From positions 5,333 to 69,332 of the forward strand of contig CAZCBX010000001.1 of assembly GCA_964497185.1 (NCBI GenBank): a stretch of DNA of 64,000 bases. The letters are read 5' to 3'. Origin of the DNA: an uncultured Bdellovibrionales bacterium (lineage in GTDB: Bacteria; Bdellovibrionota_G; JALEGL01; JAGRMV01). The notes under the pieces are model-generated. The model was not told where the DNA came from, made no database searches, and was given only the letters and a program-made list of their open reading frames with translations. Positions 44,583-53,744 of this stretch are shown piece by piece (the stretch's first letter is position 1; every line of letters begins with the position of its first letter). The translations under genes were made by a program, and so were the position numbers.

Positions 44583-45956
44583 TTATTTCATCATTTGCAA
44601 ACGTTTCATACGTCGAATCAGAGAAGATCTCGAAATTCCTAACAAAGTGGAGGCTTTTTGTTTTTGCCCAAAAGCTTGATCCAGTGCTTTTTGAATGAGC
44701 TGTTTTTCATACGCGTCAAGGGCCTGCTCAAATTGATTCATTGGCTTGTTGGCAGTCGATGAAGCGGGGGATGTGTTTTCCAAAACATAGGCTGGAATAT
44801 CCTGTGACGTTAATTCGCGATGGTCGGATAACACCAACATGGCATCTATGACATTAAACAACTGTCGTGCATTGCCAGGCCAGTCCATGCTGGATAAGCG
44901 TGCTTTGGTTTCTGCATGGATGGTTTTGTTTTCTTGATTGTGCTCGGTTCGTTCAAGATAATAGTCTATTAAAAGCGGGATGTCCTCTCGGCGTTCACGC
45001 AGGGGCTCCAAATGAAGCTGCACTACCGATAAACGGTAATACAAATCTTCCCGAAAAGTGCCCTCTTGGATTTGGATGCGCAAATCTCGATTGGTTGCGG
45101 CAATGACCCGAAAATTGGACTGAATCATCTGATGGCCACCAACCCGCTCAAATTCTTTTTCTTGTAAGACCCGCAAAAGTTTGGACTGTAGATGCAAGGG
45201 CATCGAACCGATCTCATCCAGAAAAATATCTCCGCCGTTGGCCAATTCAAACTTTCCGATTTTTTGTCGATCGGCTCCCGTAAACGCACCCTTTTCATGG
45301 CCAAACATGATCGATTCCATAAGCTCAGATGGGATGGCTGCACAATTAAGTGCTACGAAGGGCCGTGAATTTTTTTTATGCATGGAGTGAATATATCGAG
45401 ACAGCACCTCTTTGCCTGTCCCGCTTTCACCAATGATCAATACATTCACTTCTGCGTTGGCTACTTTTTGACTGACGAGGCGAAGTTTTTGCACATTTTC
45501 AGATCGACCAATGTATTCTTTGGCCACAGGCTCTGAAGACGAATCATAAATTGGATCATCAAATTGCCAAGCGATTTTACGAATGGATTTTTCAACCGTC
45601 TTATGAAGGTCATCTTTTTCAAATGGTTTGGTGATGTAATCCACGGCGCCAATCTTAAGTGCTTTGGCAATGGATTGCGAGTCGCGATCTCCAGTGAGCA
45701 TCAAATATTGGACATGTTTTCGCTTTCGCTTAAGTTCAGACAAAAGTGCAATGCCGTCGTCCTGATCCAAATGAACATCCAGAATCACCAAATCAGGATG
45801 ATTTTTTTGAAATATTTGTTTTGCCTCATCTCCAGTTTGGGCAGTCCATAAATCGTATCGCTCAGAAAGCTCTAATTTCAATGAGGCGAGAATACCGGGA
45901 TCATCATCGACACAAAGAATAGAAGGCTTGGTACGCATGTTATTTTTCCCTTTCAT
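44583..45956 (-). CDS. Sigma-54-dependent response regulator (NtrC/LuxO-like bacterial enhancer-binding protein)
   Basis: Receiver domain; AAA+ sigma-54 activator domain with GAFTGA (EKGAFTGA); C-terminal Fis-type HTH. Confidence 0.88.
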   Translation of the reverse strand: MKGKNNMRTKPSILCVDDDPGILASLKLELSERYDLWTAQTGDEAKQIFQKNHPDLVILDVHLDQDDGIALLSELKRKRKHVQYLMLTGDRDSQSIAKALKIGAVDYITKPFEKDDLHKTVEKSIRKIAWQFDDPIYDSSSEPVAKEYIGRSENVQKLRLVSQKVANAEVNVLIIGESGTGKEVLSRYIHSMHKKNSRPFVALNCAAIPSELMESIMFGHEKGAFTGADRQKIGKFELANGGDIFLDEIGSMPLHLQSKLLRVLQEKEFERVGGHQMIQSNFRVIAATNRDLRIQIQEGTFREDLYYRLSVVQLHLEPLRERREDIPLLIDYYLERTEHNQENKTIHAETKARLSSMDWPGNARQLFNVIDAMLVLSDHRELTSQDIPAYVLENTSPASSTANKPMNQFEQALDAYEKQLIQKALDQAFGQKQKASTLLGISRSSLIRRMKRLQMMK

Positions 45957-46137
45957 CCATTTGGTCCACCAACGCTTCCAAACGATCCAACGCCTGACCC
46001 GTGAACTCGTAAAAATCCTTCATAAAAGCTTCATCTTCTTTTTTGCTCGGAAGATGCCGCATAAAAGTACGAAGGGTTGTCAGTGGTTGCCGAAGATCAT
46101 GTTGAAGATTTGAAAAAGCCATTGTAGAAGTCTCCAA
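45940..46137 (-). CDS. 65-aa standalone H-box (HisKA/DHp-like) protein, candidate phosphotransfer component
   Basis: NLQHDLRQPLTTL matches the histidine-kinase H-box consensus (hELRTPL); 17-nt overlap with the sigma-54 regulator start suggests translational coupling. Confidence 0.4.
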   Translation of the reverse strand: METSTMAFSNLQHDLRQPLTTLRTFMRHLPSKKEDEAFMKDFYEFTGQALDRLEALVDQMDEREK

Positions 46138-46220
46138 TGCGTATTAGCACAAGCCATGCCATATTTTTACACCACTGGGTGGTCCATAACACACCCATTT
46201 GAATCAATACAGTACACACC

Positions 46221-46235
46221 GTTCGATATCCGAAC
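46221..46235. promoter_or_regulatory. Palindromic operator candidate GTTCGATATCCGAAC in the divergent promoter region
   Basis: Perfect inverted repeat GTTCG-N5-CGAAC about 65 bp upstream of the receiver gene; related copy at 53062-53076. Confidence 0.4.
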
Positions 46236-46300: not shown

Positions 46301-46651
46301 ATGAGCCATACGCATTCACTCAAACAAATCTTGGTTCTCATTGATGATGACCCACTGATTCACGCCACATGGTCCATGGTGGCTCAAGCAAAAGGCCATC
46401 AACTTCAATGCTTCACGTGCATTGAAGACTTTAATCAGGCAAGTATCCCCCTGGACGTGCCTGTCTATGTTGATTACCACTTGGGAGAAAAATCGGGCGC
46501 CGACATCATCAAACGCTTGGCTCAAAGAGGGTACGATCATTTATACATCACCACCGGTCGAAAACCCACTGACATCATCAAAGAACCTGAAATGAAAGGA
46601 GTATTTGGCAAAGACTATCCAGAGCAAATTCCTCATTCCAGCTCTTTTTGA
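46301..46651 (+). CDS. Single-domain response regulator (CheY-like receiver only)
   Basis: 116 aa; acidic pocket IDDD; phospho-acceptor in VYVDYHL; conserved Thr (YITTG) and Lys. Confidence 0.75.
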   Translation: MSHTHSLKQILVLIDDDPLIHATWSMVAQAKGHQLQCFTCIEDFNQASIPLDVPVYVDYHLGEKSGADIIKRLAQRGYDHLYITTGRKPTDIIKEPEMKGVFGKDYPEQIPHSSSF

Positions 46652-46677: not shown

Positions 46678-48453
46678 CTAAACAATCGGAATTTGCTGAG
46701 CTAAACTTTTAGGCAATATTTTTAATTCAGTTTTCATGGCCAAATCCAGAAGACTTTCGTCCGCATAATGACTCGAAACCAATATAGAATGGTTTTCTAA
46801 GACATTTCGGTGAATGATTTCTTGCCCGTTCACGGGGCTGCCCAGCAGCTCGTAATCAACAAGAAATAAATAGCCCGTTAGCGAAGGCAACACAGAAATC
46901 CAATTTTCAAAAGAAGTAGAATCATAAAAATGGTGCAATTTGATATGATGGCTGATTTTAAAGTTTTGGAGTCGGTTTTTCCAAACTTGGTGAATGGAAG
47001 AGTCGTCATCAAGAATAATGACATTGGTTATTTGATTCAACGCGATAGAAGAGGGAAACCATGCAGGCGTCCGGGTTAAAGGAAAAATCATTTCTACTTC
47101 CGTACCGCGCCCAGGAGTGCTGGTGATTTCAATGGAGGCACTTGCTTTGTGTAAGTTTTTAAAAGCATGATACAAACCCAGTCCTTTGCCAGAAATTTTT
47201 CTATAGCTAATTCTGTCTCTGCCAAGTTTTTCTAAAACATCAGAAGGAATGCCAACACCATTGTCAGTAATTTTTACACTTGCATGATGGTCTTTTTTGG
47301 TCAAAGATATTTCTACACGCCCCTTAGACGGGATAGACTCAATGGCATTGGATAAAATATTTGAAAAAACTCTTTTCAACTCAACACTGCTAAATTTTAC
47401 AAAAGTATCAAAGGAGTGATCGGAAACAATAAAATCAATGGTAACTTTATCAATTTCTTGATGCTGAATTCTTTTTTCAGCCAGCACATGTTCGATTAAA
47501 ACGACAAGCAGTACAGGTTTTAAATTTTGATCGGTATATTCATCTTCGCTAATATTCGTCAGCGTACTTACAATGCCGTCAATTCGGTTGGTTGCTTCAC
47601 GGATAAGTAAACGATAGTTTTCTGGAATCTCATTTAAAGAGCCCGTAACCACCTTCAAAGCAGTCAGGGGTGATCTAATATCATGAACAACTTGATTGGC
47701 GACGGAGATCACACCTTCTTCTCTAGATTTTTTAGCCAATTTTGCTTGGGTTTCTTCTATCATTCGATTGTATGCATTAAATGCTAAGCTAAGAGTTTGA
47801 ATTTCGCCTACGCCCCGAACTTCTTCAATATTTTTTGCTCTTTTCATGACATCTTGGGTAAGTTTTCTGATAGGTCTTTCAAGATTTTCTATGATCAAAA
47901 GCATAATGCCACTAAAAATGAAAAATACGGAGGTAAAATAAAGCAAATATTTATAAAATTCCTGTTTGAATTCTTGTAAAAAGGAACGGCTTGAAATTTT
48001 TGCAACTATATTTCCCCATTCAGTGCTGTATCGATCTATCAGTTTTATGTTTAACTCAAATTGTCTGGTATTAAAGAAATAATCAATGAATGACCATGTA
48101 TCTGTCAAACCATGTTCACTTCCAACTAAAAATTCCTCTGCCCCGTAGTTGAGCTTTACGTATTGAAAAGATCCATTTTTTACAAGATAGTCCATTTTTC
48201 TTTGAACCGAAGCATATTTGCCCACTTGGAGGTCACTTAAAAAAGATTGTGAGTAGACATTTAGCCATTGGTTTTGATTTTCTACAAAAGTAGAAACGTG
48301 GTCACGAAATGTGGTGAAAGTAAATATTCCAAAAATAAAAAAAAGAGATAAAAAAATCGCTCCCAGCGTAATCATTAATTTTTGTCTAAACAGCATGGAC
48401 TTACTCATTAAAATAAACACTTTCCCACTCAGCCAGGTAACCTTTGATGCCAA
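46678..48453 (-). CDS. Hybrid sensor histidine kinase (HisKA + HATPase_c + C-terminal receiver-like domain)
   Basis: H-box VHDIRSPLTAL; G-boxes (ITDNGVGIP, GKGLGLY); C-terminal ILDDDSSIHQVW...LVDYEL receiver paralogous to the standalone receiver. Confidence 0.82.
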   Translation of the reverse strand: MASKVTWLSGKVFILMSKSMLFRQKLMITLGAIFLSLFFIFGIFTFTTFRDHVSTFVENQNQWLNVYSQSFLSDLQVGKYASVQRKMDYLVKNGSFQYVKLNYGAEEFLVGSEHGLTDTWSFIDYFFNTRQFELNIKLIDRYSTEWGNIVAKISSRSFLQEFKQEFYKYLLYFTSVFFIFSGIMLLIIENLERPIRKLTQDVMKRAKNIEEVRGVGEIQTLSLAFNAYNRMIEETQAKLAKKSREEGVISVANQVVHDIRSPLTALKVVTGSLNEIPENYRLLIREATNRIDGIVSTLTNISEDEYTDQNLKPVLLVVLIEHVLAEKRIQHQEIDKVTIDFIVSDHSFDTFVKFSSVELKRVFSNILSNAIESIPSKGRVEISLTKKDHHASVKITDNGVGIPSDVLEKLGRDRISYRKISGKGLGLYHAFKNLHKASASIEITSTPGRGTEVEMIFPLTRTPAWFPSSIALNQITNVIILDDDSSIHQVWKNRLQNFKISHHIKLHHFYDSTSFENWISVLPSLTGYLFLVDYELLGSPVNGQEIIHRNVLENHSILVSSHYADESLLDLAMKTELKILPKSLAQQIPIV

Positions 48454-49954
48454 TAAATTTGATATTTTTTAGATTTTTACTGGTGACGATCTTGGATTGA
48501 TTATGAACAATCGGGTAAGCCAAACTCTTTTTAATAAGGTAATGATCAATCGATGAATAAAGCCTAAATTTTTCCTCTATGGTATTGGATTTTTTTAGAT
48601 TTTCAAAATAAGTGTCTAAATCGTCGTGTTTTCCACCGATAAGATATTCATTTGAATCTTTGTAAAAATATTGCAAGGCGGACATGGGGTCTTCATTTTT
48701 AAAATAAAGTTTTTCAATCCAGACTGGAAGTTTTTGATTTTCATACAATTTGAATATTTCTGAAAAGGGAAGTACGACGGTTTCAACGCCGATTTCCAGC
48801 AAAGGCTTCCTAACAATGTCCAAAATGCAGTCCACCTGCTGATCATCAGCGATATGGAAGACCAAATTGTTAAATTTTTTATTTTTCACAACAGTTTGTA
48901 TATCCTCCTTATAACTCTGCGAAGAACCAATTAATCCTTTTGGAATAATCGAACTGGCTACGTTTTGATTCCCGTAGCAAACCTCTCGAATTTTATGAAT
49001 GGGAATGTTTGACAGTAAATATTTTCTGTACTCAACATTTTTTAATTCATCAAAATGATCTGAATTGATGATAATTGTTTCCGTACTGTATTCAGCAATC
49101 TCTTGATACGCAAAGTGGTCCAATTTTTCGATCTCAGAAAAATCGTCAATGCTATAAAAAATAAGATCCGCAACCTCACCAAGCTTGTACTTTTCTATGG
49201 CAACAGACTTTGCCTGCTGTGAAATAACAATGGTTTTGATTTTGGGTGCGTCGCCATAGTAATACTGATTTCTAGAAAGCTTGATCTCACCTTTTTTTGT
49301 TTCCACGACTGCATAAGGACCAGAAGAAACCGGGTATGAAAAATACGCCTCTTTTGCCATGTCACTAAAATTGTGTGGATAAATACAAAACCGCGGAAGG
49401 GAAAGGTTCATCATAAATTGATCGTAAGAATGAATAAGCTCAATATCAAGTGTCCGGTTGTCAACAATGCGGATACCATTTATGAATGGATTTTTTTCTT
49501 CTCTATACTCTTTTGCACCCAAAATTTGTGTTAACACGCTGCTATCCAGAGCATCTTTGTCGACCCATTGATGGAAAGAGAAGGCAATATCTTTGGCATT
49601 GATTTTTTCGCCATTAGAAAACCGAACTTCATCACGAAGATGCAATCGATAAATTTTTTTATCGGTATCAAATTCCCATGATTTCAACAAATCAGGCTTA
49701 ATGCCAAATGAATCATCCACCTTCACCAAATGGCTATAGATTGGATACAGTAGAGCTTTTTGAATAGAATCAGGGACTTTTTGTGGATTGAGGTTGTCAG
49801 GACGGACCGGAACCAAAATATTCCATACTTTGCTTTGGCTTGAAATTCTTTTTTGGTTAATTCTAGATAATTTTCCGAGAGAAAACGAATAAACCAAAAT
49901 TAAAATTCCAGTAAAAATGAGTATGAATGGCGCATATTTTTTCGGCATAATCAT
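48401..49954 (-). CDS. Periplasmic solute-binding protein, family 5 (Opp/Dpp-like), encoded without an ABC permease or ATPase
   Basis: 517 aa with signal/anchor; SBP_bac_5-like sequence; 53-nt overlap with the downstream kinase gene. Confidence 0.68.
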   Translation of the reverse strand: MIMPKKYAPFILIFTGILILVYSFSLGKLSRINQKRISSQSKVWNILVPVRPDNLNPQKVPDSIQKALLYPIYSHLVKVDDSFGIKPDLLKSWEFDTDKKIYRLHLRDEVRFSNGEKINAKDIAFSFHQWVDKDALDSSVLTQILGAKEYREEKNPFINGIRIVDNRTLDIELIHSYDQFMMNLSLPRFCIYPHNFSDMAKEAYFSYPVSSGPYAVVETKKGEIKLSRNQYYYGDAPKIKTIVISQQAKSVAIEKYKLGEVADLIFYSIDDFSEIEKLDHFAYQEIAEYSTETIIINSDHFDELKNVEYRKYLLSNIPIHKIREVCYGNQNVASSIIPKGLIGSSQSYKEDIQTVVKNKKFNNLVFHIADDQQVDCILDIVRKPLLEIGVETVVLPFSEIFKLYENQKLPVWIEKLYFKNEDPMSALQYFYKDSNEYLIGGKHDDLDTYFENLKKSNTIEEKFRLYSSIDHYLIKKSLAYPIVHNQSKIVTSKNLKNIKFIGIKGYLAEWESVYFNE

Positions 49955-49956
49955 AT

Positions 49957-51816
49957 TTATAGTTTGTTTTCAAACATGATTCCAAAATTCATTGATTCTG
50001 GATCATCATAATAATCTTTGAGTAATCCCAAATCAGTTGCGCCTGAGCTTGTGGCGGCACGGTAGCCATATTCATTGTATTTGGATATTTTTAAACCAGA
50101 ATGATACTGATCGATGGAAATCCCAAGCTCATGCCAATAGGCAAAGTTAGGGATTCGTATTCCATAAAAAATAGATTTAATGGCCTCTTCTTTATAAAAG
50201 ATCTTTGCAGCACGAATAATTTCAACTGCTGTCCCTATGGGCGCGTCTGGTAAGACAGAAATGGAAACAATGTATCTAGAATCAAAGTTGGACAAGGTTT
50301 TTTTAGCATAATCAATGCATGCATAATGATGCCACTTATGTTTTTTCATGGCTTGACTTTGATTGCATGGTACTGAATAGATAAAACCCACTGGTTTTCC
50401 TTTATTTCGGCTATAAGCGATCAGAAAATTATCAGGCTTTATTTTTAGTCTTTCTCGAATGGTTTCTTTGCTGGCGGCATGTTTTTTGAGCCATGATCCA
50501 TCTTCAATGTTGGATAAAATATCTACATCGCTTTCAAGAGCTTGAAATACAGCAATTTGATCTTTGGTGCGTGTAGTTGTTTTAGAAATGTATTTTTGAA
50601 CAGAAAAAGAAAAATCATCCAATTTTTGATTGAAAGACGAAATTCTTTGGGCAATCCTGGGTTGCTCATTGGATTCATTGGTCCATAAAACTTCTTTGTT
50701 CCCAACCAGCAAGGTGAGTTGATTTTGCTGCGCTTTTTCTAAGTCCAAATCAAAAACTCTTCCTTCATATGGATTGGTTAAAAACTCCCCCGTCCACCGA
50801 CCGTTTAATTCTATATCACCATCTTTCAAGGGTTTGCCAAGGGCCGTGTGGATAAGAAGCTCACCTATGTTCTCGTTTATTAAAGTTCGATTGATAAGCT
50901 CAGGCATATAGTCACCGGCTATTCGTGCATTGACTTCAATGAGAACAGGCATTTCATTGACCAGCTTAAATTCAATATGTGTCCAAGAGTTTTGTATTTT
51001 TAATGTTGTGTGACATGCCTGCGCGAAATTTTGGATGGCCTCCAAAATTTTCTCATTTTGAATATTGGTTGGAAAAGTATCGGATAATTCATTGGTGCAG
51101 TGAGTTTTTTTATCCGTAATACCAATGACGTGCGTTTTTCCATTGAGCACCATAGACTCTACACTGTACTCGTTGCCATAGATGATCTCTTCAACGACAA
51201 TGTCTTGAGTAATGTTACCATAAATTTTTCGTAAATTCTCCTCATGAAAATCAATGGTTCTTAATTCTTGTATAGCACCAAACAGTTCTTTTTCATTGTT
51301 GATGATTTGAACGCCAAGGCTGGCCATCATTTGTGCAGGTTTGATGATGAATGGAAACGCTAAATTTTTTTCCTTTAATTCATCATAAGTCGGACTTGCA
51401 TCTGAAAAGTAATAAAAATTTGGATTATAATGTGAAAAGGAACTTTGAATTTTCTCTCGCACTAAGCCTTTGTGTCGATAACTTGCTTGCGGGTCTTGAC
51501 TAATTGAAGGCAATTGAAGATCCATTTGCAGTTGATTGCAAAATCCCACGGAGGTCTCAACCCAACACAACGCCCCACAGATTTTCAACTGATATTTGGA
51601 AGCATATTGTTTGGTTTGCTGGGTTAAGTCATGGTGGCTTTGATAATCAAATACAAAGCCTTTAATAGAATATTTTTCTTCCAACCAGGAATAGTCCATA
51701 AAGGCAAGACCCTGAGCGTAAATAAAATGATAATCGGTGTTTTGCTTTAGTTGTTCCACCAAGTAAGCTTTGGAAGATTGAAAACCAGGTTCGACAATGA
51801 TGATTGTTTCTTTCAT
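49957..51816 (-). CDS. ATP-grasp ligase fused to a ~220-aa C-terminal domain of unknown function
   Basis: 619 aa; N-terminal ~400 aa ATP-grasp fold (carboxylate-amine ligase-like); extra C-terminal domain. Confidence 0.6.
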   Translation of the reverse strand: MKETIIIVEPGFQSSKAYLVEQLKQNTDYHFIYAQGLAFMDYSWLEEKYSIKGFVFDYQSHHDLTQQTKQYASKYQLKICGALCWVETSVGFCNQLQMDLQLPSISQDPQASYRHKGLVREKIQSSFSHYNPNFYYFSDASPTYDELKEKNLAFPFIIKPAQMMASLGVQIINNEKELFGAIQELRTIDFHEENLRKIYGNITQDIVVEEIIYGNEYSVESMVLNGKTHVIGITDKKTHCTNELSDTFPTNIQNEKILEAIQNFAQACHTTLKIQNSWTHIEFKLVNEMPVLIEVNARIAGDYMPELINRTLINENIGELLIHTALGKPLKDGDIELNGRWTGEFLTNPYEGRVFDLDLEKAQQNQLTLLVGNKEVLWTNESNEQPRIAQRISSFNQKLDDFSFSVQKYISKTTTRTKDQIAVFQALESDVDILSNIEDGSWLKKHAASKETIRERLKIKPDNFLIAYSRNKGKPVGFIYSVPCNQSQAMKKHKWHHYACIDYAKKTLSNFDSRYIVSISVLPDAPIGTAVEIIRAAKIFYKEEAIKSIFYGIRIPNFAYWHELGISIDQYHSGLKISKYNEYGYRAATSSGATDLGLLKDYYDDPESMNFGIMFENKL

Positions 51817-51827
51817 TGATTCTCCGT

Positions 51828-52991
51828 TTAAAAAAAAGAATGGGGCCAGTTTGTAATCATGTTTTCAATAAAATTGGAAAGGGCTGGCATTGTCCAGAAT
51901 CCAATGTGAACTGAAGCAATATAAGGCCCAACCAAACAAATAAAAGCATCAAAAGCCAAAATGCGGTTGATGTAAGGTCCACTTAACTTTTTATAGGAAA
52001 ATAAATAATGGTCAATATTGGGCAGTTGATATGCTTCACAAACACTCCACACCACAAAAAATGGAATCCCAAGCCAGAAATTAGAAATGAGCAGCATGAT
52101 CGTGCAGAAAAAAGCAATTAAGCTAATAACATCATAGCGGCGCAAGGAAAATTCCAAAATTTTTGTCTTTATGGAAATAAGTTGAATCAAAATGACAGCA
52201 ATGGGGTTAAAACCCAATATTATTGCACTATACTTTGCTTCTAAATTGATGGCACTGGCTTTGATGGGTATGGCAGAAATCATAATGGCATAAGGAAGTA
52301 CAAACCCCAAAAAGCGTAAAACATCTTGCAAGACGTTGTGGATCGAAGCAATGCTTTCAACTTCTAAGTGGTTTGATTCCACTTGCTTGGTTTCTTTAGC
52401 AGAATCAAATGTGAATGGCTGATCCAGCCACCGCAAGATTTTCGAGGATATAACGGCGCCAGCGCTCCCTAGTAAAAAAACAACAAGAGTCGGAAAGGAC
52501 GCTTCCAACAGAAAAGCACCAACAAGCGGAAAAACAAGAAAAGCCAGATTGGTGGTGATGCCAAATAAAATGTATAAATTACCTTTTCCCTTGTAAAAAT
52601 TTACAAACTCACCCAGCAGATAACGACTTTTTTTGTAATAAATGGCCTGGGACAAACCAAAAGAAATAAAACTCACAATTTGCAATATCGGGACAGGTAC
52701 GAAAATAAGACAAAGGGCAGCCATTCTGGTGCAAAGCATCAAAGCAATGTGGGTTGTCCATTTTTCTCCGAAAAAGGAAATCAACCACACGCCCCCCACC
52801 TGCAGCCCAGCAAAAAGCCCCATGCCCAAGATGATGGCAGAGCGCAGCTTTGTTTCTTCAATGGGTAGATGCAAAAAAAGCGCATTCACGCCAATGTAGG
52901 CATAAGACCCAAAGAAGAAAAAATTCGAAAGGCCCAGAAGCCCAAGTTTTGAAAACAGTCTATTCATGAATAATGATTGCCTATAGAGCAT
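51828..52991 (-). CDS. Polytopic membrane protein (10-12 TM), possibly a transporter
   Basis: Hydrophobic helices throughout; start adjusted to ATG (MLYRQSL). Confidence 0.5.
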   Translation of the reverse strand: MLYRQSLFMNRLFSKLGLLGLSNFFFFGSYAYIGVNALFLHLPIEETKLRSAIILGMGLFAGLQVGGVWLISFFGEKWTTHIALMLCTRMAALCLIFVPVPILQIVSFISFGLSQAIYYKKSRYLLGEFVNFYKGKGNLYILFGITTNLAFLVFPLVGAFLLEASFPTLVVFLLGSAGAVISSKILRWLDQPFTFDSAKETKQVESNHLEVESIASIHNVLQDVLRFLGFVLPYAIMISAIPIKASAINLEAKYSAIILGFNPIAVILIQLISIKTKILEFSLRRYDVISLIAFFCTIMLLISNFWLGIPFFVVWSVCEAYQLPNIDHYLFSYKKLSGPYINRILAFDAFICLVGPYIASVHIGFWTMPALSNFIENMITNWPHSFF

Positions 52992-53061
52992 AAACCATAC
53001 CAACTTTTTAAGTTCTAGCCACTGGATTAGCTTATTTTAAACCATGTATTTGATTGAAGAT

Positions 53062-53076
53062 GTTCGGTATCCGAAC
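53062..53076. promoter_or_regulatory. Palindromic operator candidate GTTCGGTATCCGAAC (second copy)
   Basis: Extended palindrome ATGTTCGG-TAT-CCGAACAT in the divergent intergenic region. Confidence 0.4.
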
Positions 53077-53141: not shown

Positions 53142-53345
53142 ATGAGCCATACGCATTCACCCAAACAAATCCTAGCCCTCATTGATGATGACCCACTGAT
53201 TCACGCCACATGGTCCATGGTGGCTCAAGCAAAAGGCCATCAACTTCAATGCTTCTATTCGCTAGACAAGTTTTGCACTGCATATGTCCTCATTTATACA
53301 TATATTTTTGTTGGCTATCATTTAAATGACAGAAAAGGCACCTAA
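53142..53345 (+). pseudogene. Truncated duplicate of the single-domain response regulator 5' end
   Basis: First 38 codons (MSHTHSPKQILALIDDDPLIHATWSMVAQAKGHQLQCF) near-identical to 46301-46414 (~77 bp identical at DNA level), then unrelated sequence and early stop. Confidence 0.6.
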
Positions 53346-53744
53346 GTTATAAAAAAGTTGGCCAGAAGCGGTTTTTCTTCGCTCTTTATTACAACTGGAC
53401 ATGACAAAAGCACCATTCATTCTTTTTCCCCAGCGAGAGCTGTTTTTGGAAAAAATTATCCTTAGTTCATATGAGTGAATATGTTGTCAGCCCCAAGATA
53501 AATATTTCAGTTGCTATCACTAAATCGAACAAATGTGATTGGAATCCAAACAAATCATTAATTTCTTTCCCATGGGTTTTGGCGGGTTTTCAGTCATCTT
53601 TATCTTTATTTTTTTGATTAACAGAACCTATCTAAAATCTTATAGCGTTTGGAAATAGAACGAACTTGTTCTGTTTCCAAATTATTTTTGTAGAAATAAT
53701 GCATCCTTTCCAGGATACGGTACGGTTTTTTTTACTTTAACCGT

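Follow-up and report, generated by a model that had tools for sequence, protein, structure and literature searches.

A conserved free-standing DHp hairpin encoded beside an NtrC-type sigma-54 activator in Bdellovibrionota: a candidate minimal histidine phosphotransfer protein

The stretch of DNA analyzed here, referred to as the window, comprises 64,000 nucleotides (nt) from an uncultured Bdellovibrionales bacterium (contig CAZCBX010000001.1 of assembly GCA_964497185.1). Its minus strand carries an open reading frame (ORF) at positions 45940..46137, whose product includes NLQHDLRQPLTTLRTF. An earlier reading of the letters alone (the original prediction) had described it as a 65-amino-acid (aa) protein with a histidine kinase H-box, two helices, and no ATPase domain, translationally coupled to a sigma-54 regulator. 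Both the ORF and the H-box are real, as the product matches HisKA and the same mini-ORF was found in 16 sequence clusters. The gene is called mini-DHp here, after the DHp domain of histidine kinases, named for dimerization and histidine phosphotransfer. The features of the locus that matter most are the following.

45940..46122, minus strand: mini-DHp gene, 60 aa plus stop; a HisKA domain alone, with the phospho-acceptor His as residue 8 in H-D-L-R-Q-P.
46123..46137, minus strand: 5' extension of the 65-aa ORF, with a TTG start; probably 5' untranslated region, holding GGAG at 46135..46132 (from the sequence, comparison of upstream regions, and gene calls that begin at the ATG).
44583..45938, minus strand: NtrC-type sigma-54 activator with REC, AAA+ (with GAFTGA), and HTH_8 domains; alternative start at 45956.
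46301..46651, plus strand: divergent single-domain receiver of 116 aa, designated REC*, with D15/D16, the phospho-Asp D58, T84/85, and K104.

The proposed length of 65 aa stood only in part. The stop-bounded ORF exists, but the TTG at 46137 is probably not its start, and translation probably begins at the ATG at 46122, for a product of 60 aa. This ATG is preceded at 9 nt by a GGAG ribosome-binding site (46135..46132), which the TTG overlaps, while a sigma-54-type element at 46161..46146 places the likely transcript start near the TTG itself; for these reasons the TTG is unlikely to serve as a start codon. The ATG is also the start used by public gene calls and by every homolog. An exact look-up of the 65-aa version returned no match, which pointed to the 60-aa version, and a word-index search with the single 65-aa sequence as the query matched only itself.

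Similarly, the 17-nt overlap proposed for the junction with the activator gene applies only to an activator that begins with the 45956 ATG. With the ATG at 45938 instead, which is the NCBI/Logan call (451 aa) and the better fit to the N termini of orthologs, the junction reads TAA-C-ATG, with a 1-nt spacer. At orthologous loci, a 20-nt overlap, 4-nt ATGA overlaps, and spacers of 1 and 8 nt were found, with 108 nt at the most distant locus. Tight coupling of mini-DHp to the activator is thus the rule, and it is only the exact figure that is uncertain. A frameshift fusion of the two products was considered and rejected, as the relative frames are inconsistent and the spacing of the two genes varies from an overlap of 20 nt to a gap of 108 nt. 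The activator itself scored 92 bits for Response_reg, 234 bits for Sigma54_activat, and 41 bits for HTH_8 in Pfam. A search of the window against Rfam gave no match.

Using Pfam, residues 8 to 62 of the 65-aa version were found to match HisKA (PF00512) at 30.3 bits, above the gathering cutoff of 26.9, with no HATPase_c, HPt, or other domain detected and no HPt match at an E value of ≤1. NCBIfam gave partial matches only, to the DHp segments of PhoR, WalK, AtoS, and similar kinases. Across the family, HisKA was matched in 16/16 members at an E value of ≤0.01, and other families, including HATPase_c, were matched in none. An AlphaFold2 model built from a 25-row alignment is an antiparallel hairpin of two helices (residues 2 to 27 and 31 to 59) with a mean predicted local distance difference test (pLDDT) score of 92.4; together with the Pfam result, this bears out the two helices and the lack of an ATPase domain foreseen in the original prediction. 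The top Foldseek matches of this model in the PDB were the DHp hairpins of HK853, WalK/YycG, an EnvZ chimera, and KinB (query-normalized TM-scores of 0.63 to 0.83 and root mean square deviations of 1.4 to 2.6 Å, with 47 to 61 aligned columns), and the Brucella ChpT structure 4qpk ranked 27th. By family profile, the best solved relative is the DHp of Thermotoga ThkA (3a0r), and the mini-DHp H-box aligns with those of ThkA, WalK, and KinB.

The mini-DHp chain ends 3 residues after helix 2, and the next codons are those of the activator. With its stop codon abutting or overlapping the start of the activator gene, mini-DHp has no ATPase domain and is consequently not a histidine kinase. By sequence and fold, it is a member of the HisKA/DHp family with nothing else attached. 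Nor does it belong, by sequence or architecture, to the HPt proteins or to the Spo0B/ChpT family. It shares with Spo0B and ChpT a DHp-like hairpin that bears the His, and it has no ATPase domain, but it has neither their C-terminal alpha/beta domain nor a Spo0B-type family match. The HPt profile (PF01627) and the monomeric four-helix bundle of HPt proteins are likewise absent, as each chain contributes two helices.

A HMMER search of 1.84 billion representative proteins returned three short relatives (P0123 to P0125, with E values of 5e-16 to 5e-7) and a more distant short one (P0142), all other matches being full-length NtrB-like kinases with at most 45% identity. A profile search of a larger collection yielded 16 clusters at 90% identity, none of which was a full-length kinase. 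Called lengths range from 58 to 95 aa; the calls of 81 and 95 aa, which are the longest, carry extra N-terminal sequence, and the real lengths are 58 to 70 aa. The motif H-D-L-K/R-Q-P is kept in 16/16 members, and residues H8, D9, L10, Q12, P13, R18, F20, F33, A44, L45, and E49 are invariant across the clusters. Pairwise codon comparison over 51 ungapped codons gave proportions of nonsynonymous differences (pN) of 0.11 to 0.39 against proportions of synonymous differences (pS) of 0.64 to 0.95, which points to strong purifying selection with synonymous sites saturated. A metagenome scan with the family alignment found at least four loci, one of which (L019) encodes a full-length 957-aa kinase. 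A scan of species-representative genomes with the activator, in a collection that does not include this lineage, gave just two matches, both to unrelated receivers, in Flavobacterium and Gastranaerophilales. Genes this short are inconsistently annotated: at L022 (6816-6998), the mini-DHp ORF is present yet was missed by the gene caller, and other members are labeled "hypothetical protein" or "signal transduction histidine kinase."

The original prediction had itself named a pseudogene remnant of a truncated kinase as the outcome that would contradict it. Given that the frame, length, and H-box are kept in 16 clusters and that pN is far below pS, this outcome is excluded. The same data bear on the broader explanation that the ORF is a nonfunctional remnant of a kinase or a translated upstream ORF that merely couples translation of the activator. 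Such an origin would suit the position of mini-DHp, which is that of ntrB in ntrBC operons, and an unrelated ORF of similar length is found in this place at L013 and likewise runs into the activator start. However, amino acids are conserved at loci where the activators are only 53 to 69% identical and synonymous sites are saturated, the frame and H-box are intact throughout, and the AlphaFold2 model is highly confident. On these conservation data, the explanation appears essentially excluded.

The residue four positions beyond the His (His+4) is Gln in 16/16 mini-DHp members, whereas in the nearest 79 full-length kinases it is Asn (77/79) or Ser (2/79). Thus, the Thr or Asn that marks phosphatase-competent HisKA proteins at His+4 is not found in mini-DHp. 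These nearest full-length relatives are NtrB-like kinases with AHEI(R/K)NPLT...KTF..LP.KKDDPEF, so that the mini-DHp hairpin, with the surface on which a receiver would dock, belongs to the type that partners NtrC-type receivers. The NtrB-type kinase CrdS, which serves a sigma-54 activator, requires N375 for its phosphatase activity only; the N375Q change left phosphatase activity unmeasurable, phosphatase-deficient mutants at N375 were still kinase competent, and the H371A mutant indicated that the His is largely dispensable for phosphatase activity (PMC3510030). Since the same Asn-to-Gln change ends phosphatase activity in CrdS, the Gln at His+4 is an argument against a role as a dedicated phosphatase and suits a protein of transfer only, which would not hydrolyze its partner.

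This residue also bears on the possibility that mini-DHp is a dedicated negative regulator, whose free DHp would dock on the receiver of the activator and either dephosphorylate or sequester the activator; made from the same, presumptively autoregulated transcript, it would set the threshold of a positive feedback. The conserved segment of helix 1 that would contact a receiver and the cotranslation with the activator are both consistent with such a role. Work from the Inouye laboratory reportedly found that the isolated DHp of EnvZ dephosphorylates OmpR~P. That DHp, 67 aa in length, is a stable dimer in isolation (PDB 1joy and 5b1n), PhyT sequesters as well as phosphorylates PhyR (PMC5898713), and phosphatase roles were suggested by Galperin et al. 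for archaeal HisKA proteins without an ATPase (PMC5847659). We nevertheless regard negative regulation as rather unlikely: all 16 members carry at His+4 the change that abolishes the phosphatase activity of CrdS, the His is invariant here though largely dispensable for that activity (H371A) (PMC3510030), and the strict co-occurrence of mini-DHp with a single-domain receiver would be left unexplained.

To place mini-DHp in its genomic context, contigs were fetched via orthologs of the activator (47 to 69% identity; the named ones are Bdellovibrionota/Bdellovibrionales metagenome-assembled genomes) and via mini-DHp itself. In nine distinct Bdellovibrionota-type loci (the window, L010/L011, L012, L014, L016, L018, L021, L022, and L023), a divergent receiver of 104 to 129 aa and mini-DHp, with the NtrC-type activator directly downstream, were found to form a three-gene unit. 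L009 has the mini-ORF and the activator, and its contig ends just upstream. At three related activator loci (L013, L015, and L020), mini-DHp and the small receiver are both missing. L013 and L014 are syntenic apart from this absence in L013, where an ORF of 67 to 84 aa (1497-1751) takes the position of mini-DHp behind the same sigma-54 element and overlaps the activator start. This ORF was considered as a degenerate member with Glu in place of His and was rejected, as hhalign gave a probability of 1% and there is no H-box; the alignment with the family profile is limited to the tail, where the ORF overlaps the activator start. As the ORF has no homology to mini-DHp, L013 is read as a case of loss or replacement.

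The small receiver that accompanies mini-DHp is itself hard to recognize. As a single sequence, it reached only 13.7 bits against Pfam Response_reg, below the threshold, while its family profile matches receiver domains in the PDB (3kto, E value of 4e-6), and an AlphaFold2 model of low confidence (pLDDT of 66) has receiver domains as its top Foldseek matches. Among the catalytic residues, D15, D16, D58, and K104 are invariant or nearly so, and a Thr or Ser stands at the expected place. This divergent 116-aa protein is thus a very atypical receiver. It shares its family with the C-terminal receivers of hybrid kinases encoded near these loci, including one in the window, where the kinase operon (operon 2) and the regulatory sites are arranged as follows.

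46146..46161, minus strand: sigma-54-type -24/-12 promoter of the mini-DHp/activator operon, TGGCATGGCTTGTGCT, an exact match to TGGCAT-N5-RTGCT.
46221..46235, no strand assigned: palindromic upstream site, a candidate activator binding site, reading GTTCGGATATCGAAC on the minus strand, 60 nt upstream of the promoter.
46678..48453, minus strand: hybrid sensor kinase, the last gene of operon 2, with two transmembrane segments, a DHp (HDIRSP), a CA domain, and a C-terminal REC* receiver.
48401..52967, minus strand: rest of operon 2, encoding a 379-aa membrane protein, a 619-aa ATP-grasp protein, and a 517-aa SBP_bac_5 solute-binding protein (from Pfam and gene calls on an identical metagenome contig).
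52987..53002, minus strand: second sigma-54-type promoter, before operon 2, TGGTATGGTTTATGCT, 13/16 identical to the first.
53062..53076, no strand assigned: second palindromic site, reading GTTCGGATACCGAAC on the minus strand, 60 nt upstream of the second promoter.
53142..53465, plus strand: decayed second copy of the REC* receiver gene, with the phospho-Asp changed to Gly and an in-frame TAA.

The element TGGCAT-N5-(G/A)TGCT, which bears the GG-N10-GC signature, was found 16 to 71 nt ahead of the annotated start in the window, L009, L010, L012, L013, L014, and L016. The GG of the -24/-12 element is broken in L018, and L021 has a different arrangement. Exactly two copies of GTTCG-N5-CGAAC are present in the 64-kb window, and related GTTCG... 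elements occur in the same place in seven other loci. Both window copies conform to a cassette consensus in which the palindrome GTTCGGATA(T/C)CGAAC lies exactly 60 nt upstream of TGG(C/T)ATGG(C/T)TT(G/A)TGCT. No sigma-70-like site was found on the mini-DHp strand of this intergenic region. A generic scan for TGGCAC-N5-TTGC with two mismatches allowed was uninformative, with 104 matches against 105 expected, and the only useful promoter motif is the family-specific one. Because a palindrome and a sigma-54 promoter precede both operons at identical spacing, the arrangement suggests that the activator drives its own operon and that of the hybrid kinase, with autoregulation and a small regulon predicted. 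Ahead of the start of the paralogous activator at L015 (5880-5990) are two tandem GTTCGAATTCGAAC palindromes and a TGGTAT-N5-TTGCT element; as L015 has neither mini-DHp nor the small receiver, the autoregulatory layout also exists without mini-DHp.

The decayed receiver gene shares with the intact gene at 46301 a near-identical leader and 5' portion of about 115 nt, beyond which the two diverge. It lies 66 nt from the second palindrome, and the intact copy lies 66 nt from the first. Since the decayed copy sits divergent to the second promoter at the same distance, the whole cassette was duplicated.

The hybrid kinase scored 69 bits for HATPase_c and 21 bits for HisKA in Pfam, and its C-terminal 121 aa align with the family of the REC* single-domain receiver. 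This receiver (46681-47043 in the window, minus strand) went unreported by Pfam, which gave only HisKA- and HATPase-type matches at an E value of ≤1; C-terminal receivers of this type are recognized by (V/I)DD(D/E)...W...(F/V)D(Y/H/D)...K. Hybrid kinases with REC* receivers are also encoded at L013 (3199-7778), L014 (9787-12051), and L015 (64-1866), with two tandem copies directly downstream of the activator in L013.

SBP_bac_5 proteins are encoded beside the signaling genes repeatedly. In the window (operon 2, 48401-52967, minus strand) they accompany the ATP-grasp and membrane proteins, at L015 (1850-5682) their neighbors are radical-SAM/SPASM and MFS genes, and L021 (22-2662) has two copies. 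This recurrence hints at a peptide-like signal that the circuit might produce, export, and sense; no gene for a precursor peptide was identified.

The window holds only one other H-box, that of the hybrid kinase. As its alignment with mini-DHp is confined to the 11-residue H-box, mini-DHp is not a copy of the DHp of its neighbor. For the same reason, the suggestion in the original prediction that the hairpin titrates a cognate kinase found no support. A dominant-negative "microprotein" of this kind would heterodimerize with the DHp of a full-length kinase and block its autophosphorylation. DHp domains do dimerize and the mini-DHp hairpin is complete, yet no closely related full-length kinase was found for it to act upon; the best matches are at most 45% identical, none is encoded on the mini-DHp contigs, and the hybrid kinase, with the one further H-box of the window, differs from mini-DHp beyond that motif. 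Furthermore, a pure blocker of dimerization would need neither an invariant His nor the residues around it, and we regard this explanation as very unlikely.

In another alternative, mini-DHp would be the phosphate-accepting half of a split kinase: a different kinase, such as a member of the hybrid kinase family, would use its ATPase domain to phosphorylate His8 in trans, the DHp would pass the phosphate to the activator, and the small receiver would serve as a competing sink. Asp+1, Arg/Lys+3, and Pro+5, which are of the autophosphorylation type, are retained, and in the window the hybrid kinase operon lies under the same upstream site and promoter. In vitro, the catalytic domain of EnvZ, supplied separately, reportedly phosphorylates the isolated DHp in trans as well. 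However, an untethered ATPase domain would be inefficient in trans, the hybrid kinases own a complete DHp that aligns with mini-DHp over only the 11 residues of the H-box, and the three-gene unit lacks a consistently linked kinase, which makes a split kinase distinctly unlikely.

The original prediction had also proposed that the hairpin shuttles phosphate in place of an HPt protein. This part gained support from the conserved three-gene unit, the joint absence of mini-DHp and the small receiver in three loci, the invariant His, and the Gln at His+4, while the relay itself stays a prediction. The helix-1 segment after the His, which in solved kinase-regulator complexes forms the contact with the receiver, is conserved. 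A conserved His, this segment, and strict pairing with a catalytically intact receiver make phosphotransfer the simplest reading. Transfer from Asp to His on kinase-like proteins without kinase activity has been described for PhyT (PMC5898713), RedE (PMC2755868), and ChpT (PMC3433190). We put the probability at roughly 50% that mini-DHp is a minimal, dimeric histidine phosphotransferase, similar to Spo0B, ChpT, and PhyT, that relays between REC* receivers and the activator.

The sequences and models show the identity of the domain, its fold and conservation, the synteny, the promoter and upstream-site motifs, and the Gln at His+4; we infer its dimerization, its phosphorylation, its partners, and the direction of flow as follows. 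Mini-DHp is a free-standing DHp that would derive from an NtrB-like kinase, an ancestor that lost both its sensor and its ATPase domain. Two hairpins would form a four-helix bundle, and His8 would take the phosphoryl group from the phospho-Asp of a REC* receiver, either the single-domain one, the C-terminal one of a hybrid kinase, or both. Through His8, mini-DHp would thus pass phosphate between the REC* family and the receiver of the activator; reverse flow is conceivable, with the small receiver acting as a phosphate sink. The phosphorylated activator would turn on its own sigma-54 promoter, creating a positive feedback, and in this genome also the operon of the hybrid kinase, the SBP_bac_5 protein, the ATP-grasp enzyme, and the membrane protein. 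The link between mini-DHp and the hybrid kinase in the window is regulatory, in that both operons have the same upstream site and sigma-54 promoter.

Several observations weigh against a relay of this kind. No kinase was found to be consistently linked to the three-gene unit, with none within 7 to 8 kb in L010, L012, and L022, and the adjacency of the hybrid kinase in the window is not conserved between genomes. The paralogous activator of L015, with a similar hybrid kinase operon, has neither mini-DHp nor the small receiver, and as the orthologs at L013 and L020 work without mini-DHp, activators of this class do not require it. With only 7 residues, the stretch before the His in mini-DHp is far shorter than in the helix-1 stalk of kinases or of Spo0B and ChpT. 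The retained Asp+1, Arg/Lys+3, and Pro+5 would be expected just as much of a His that is phosphorylated in trans by a foreign ATPase domain, and the argument from Gln comes from a single mutant of one kinase, CrdS.

More tentatively, and with somewhat less than even confidence, mini-DHp may be the smallest natural histidine phosphotransferase, a bare HisKA hairpin of 58 to 70 aa that is intermediate between a kinase and a Spo0B/ChpT-type relay protein and, with the REC* receiver, joins hybrid kinases to a sigma-54 activator that regulates itself. In this genome, mini-DHp would be part of a LuxU-LuxO-like positive-feedback circuit acting on the SBP_bac_5/ATP-grasp/transporter operon, which may be an autoinduction loop for a peptide signal. 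Phosphorelays have been thought to need either an HPt domain or a protein of the Spo0B/ChpT type with the relic of an ATPase domain. If the relay is as proposed, a DHp hairpin alone suffices as an independent signaling component, a property known until now from laboratory fragments of EnvZ only, and mini-DHp would provide a minimal, easily purified model for the specificity between DHp and receiver and for the direction of phosphotransfer. The invariant Asn-to-Gln change at the phosphatase position would offer a testable natural case in which the surface of a bifunctional kinase became a pure transfer surface. Very short ORFs labeled "histidine kinase" or "hypothetical protein," which are readily dismissed as fragments, could then be real members of signaling pathways.

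Among known systems, the position proposed for mini-DHp in its circuit is that of LuxU in Vibrio quorum sensing, where this small phosphotransfer protein stands between hybrid kinases and the NtrC-type sigma-54 activator LuxO. Unrelated in sequence, LuxU is an HPt protein (PF01627) that folds as a monomeric four-helix bundle, whereas mini-DHp has two helices per chain and no HPt match. The "domain A" fragment of EnvZ reportedly accepts phosphate in vitro, passes it to OmpR, and dephosphorylates OmpR~P. This fragment (67 aa; PDB 1joy and 5b1n) is the closest physical counterpart of mini-DHp, with the same size and domain boundaries and a homodimeric four-helix bundle that bears the His; however, it is a laboratory fragment in which His+4 is Thr and the His is preceded by about 20 residues, while mini-DHp is a natural gene product. 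Archaeal proteins with HisKA and without HATPase ("possible incomplete histidine kinases" in P2CS) likewise have a conserved His and no ATPase domain, and roles as phosphoacceptors, in phosphotransfer, or as phosphatases have been proposed for them (PMC5847659). They carry N-terminal PAS, GAF, or other sensor domains, in contrast to mini-DHp, which is bacterial, has no other domain, and occupies a fixed neighborhood. LvrB was considered as a precedent and set aside, as it is a full-length kinase. In the literature searched, no description of a natural, conserved bare DHp protein was found, an absence of evidence that extends to that literature only.

Kinase-like proteins that serve as phosphotransferases offer a functional parallel, namely, PhyT of Sphingomonas and RedE of Myxococcus, in which the His is phosphorylated from a receiver (SdrG and RedD, respectively) and the protein then acts on the output regulator (PMC5898713, PMC2755868). 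PhyT does so as a member of the relay Pak-SdrG-PhyT-PhyR, which passes by way of a single-domain receiver (PMC5898713). Both keep an ATPase-like domain and PhyT is membrane bound, whereas mini-DHp is a soluble hairpin. The initial description of PhyT was as a phosphatase, and RedF is dephosphorylated by RedE, while the mini-DHp family has Gln at the phosphatase position. The relay logic of CckA-ChpT-CtrA and Pak-SdrG-PhyT-PhyR is the same as that proposed here, where a bare HisKA hairpin would carry it out. Spo0B, from Bacillus sporulation, and ChpT, from Caulobacter, are dimeric DHp-like hairpins with the phospho-His on helix 1 and no kinase activity, and they shuttle phosphate from receiver to receiver (for ChpT, PMC3433190); in mini-DHp the dimer and the shuttle are predicted. 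They are about 190 to 250 aa long, with a C-terminal alpha/beta domain derived from an ATPase, while mini-DHp stops at about the end of helix 2 after 60 aa and is still recognizable as HisKA above the Pfam threshold, without a Spo0B-type family match. In the Spo0F-Spo0B-Spo0A system, as in the present locus, a hairpin is combined with a single-domain receiver and an output regulator.

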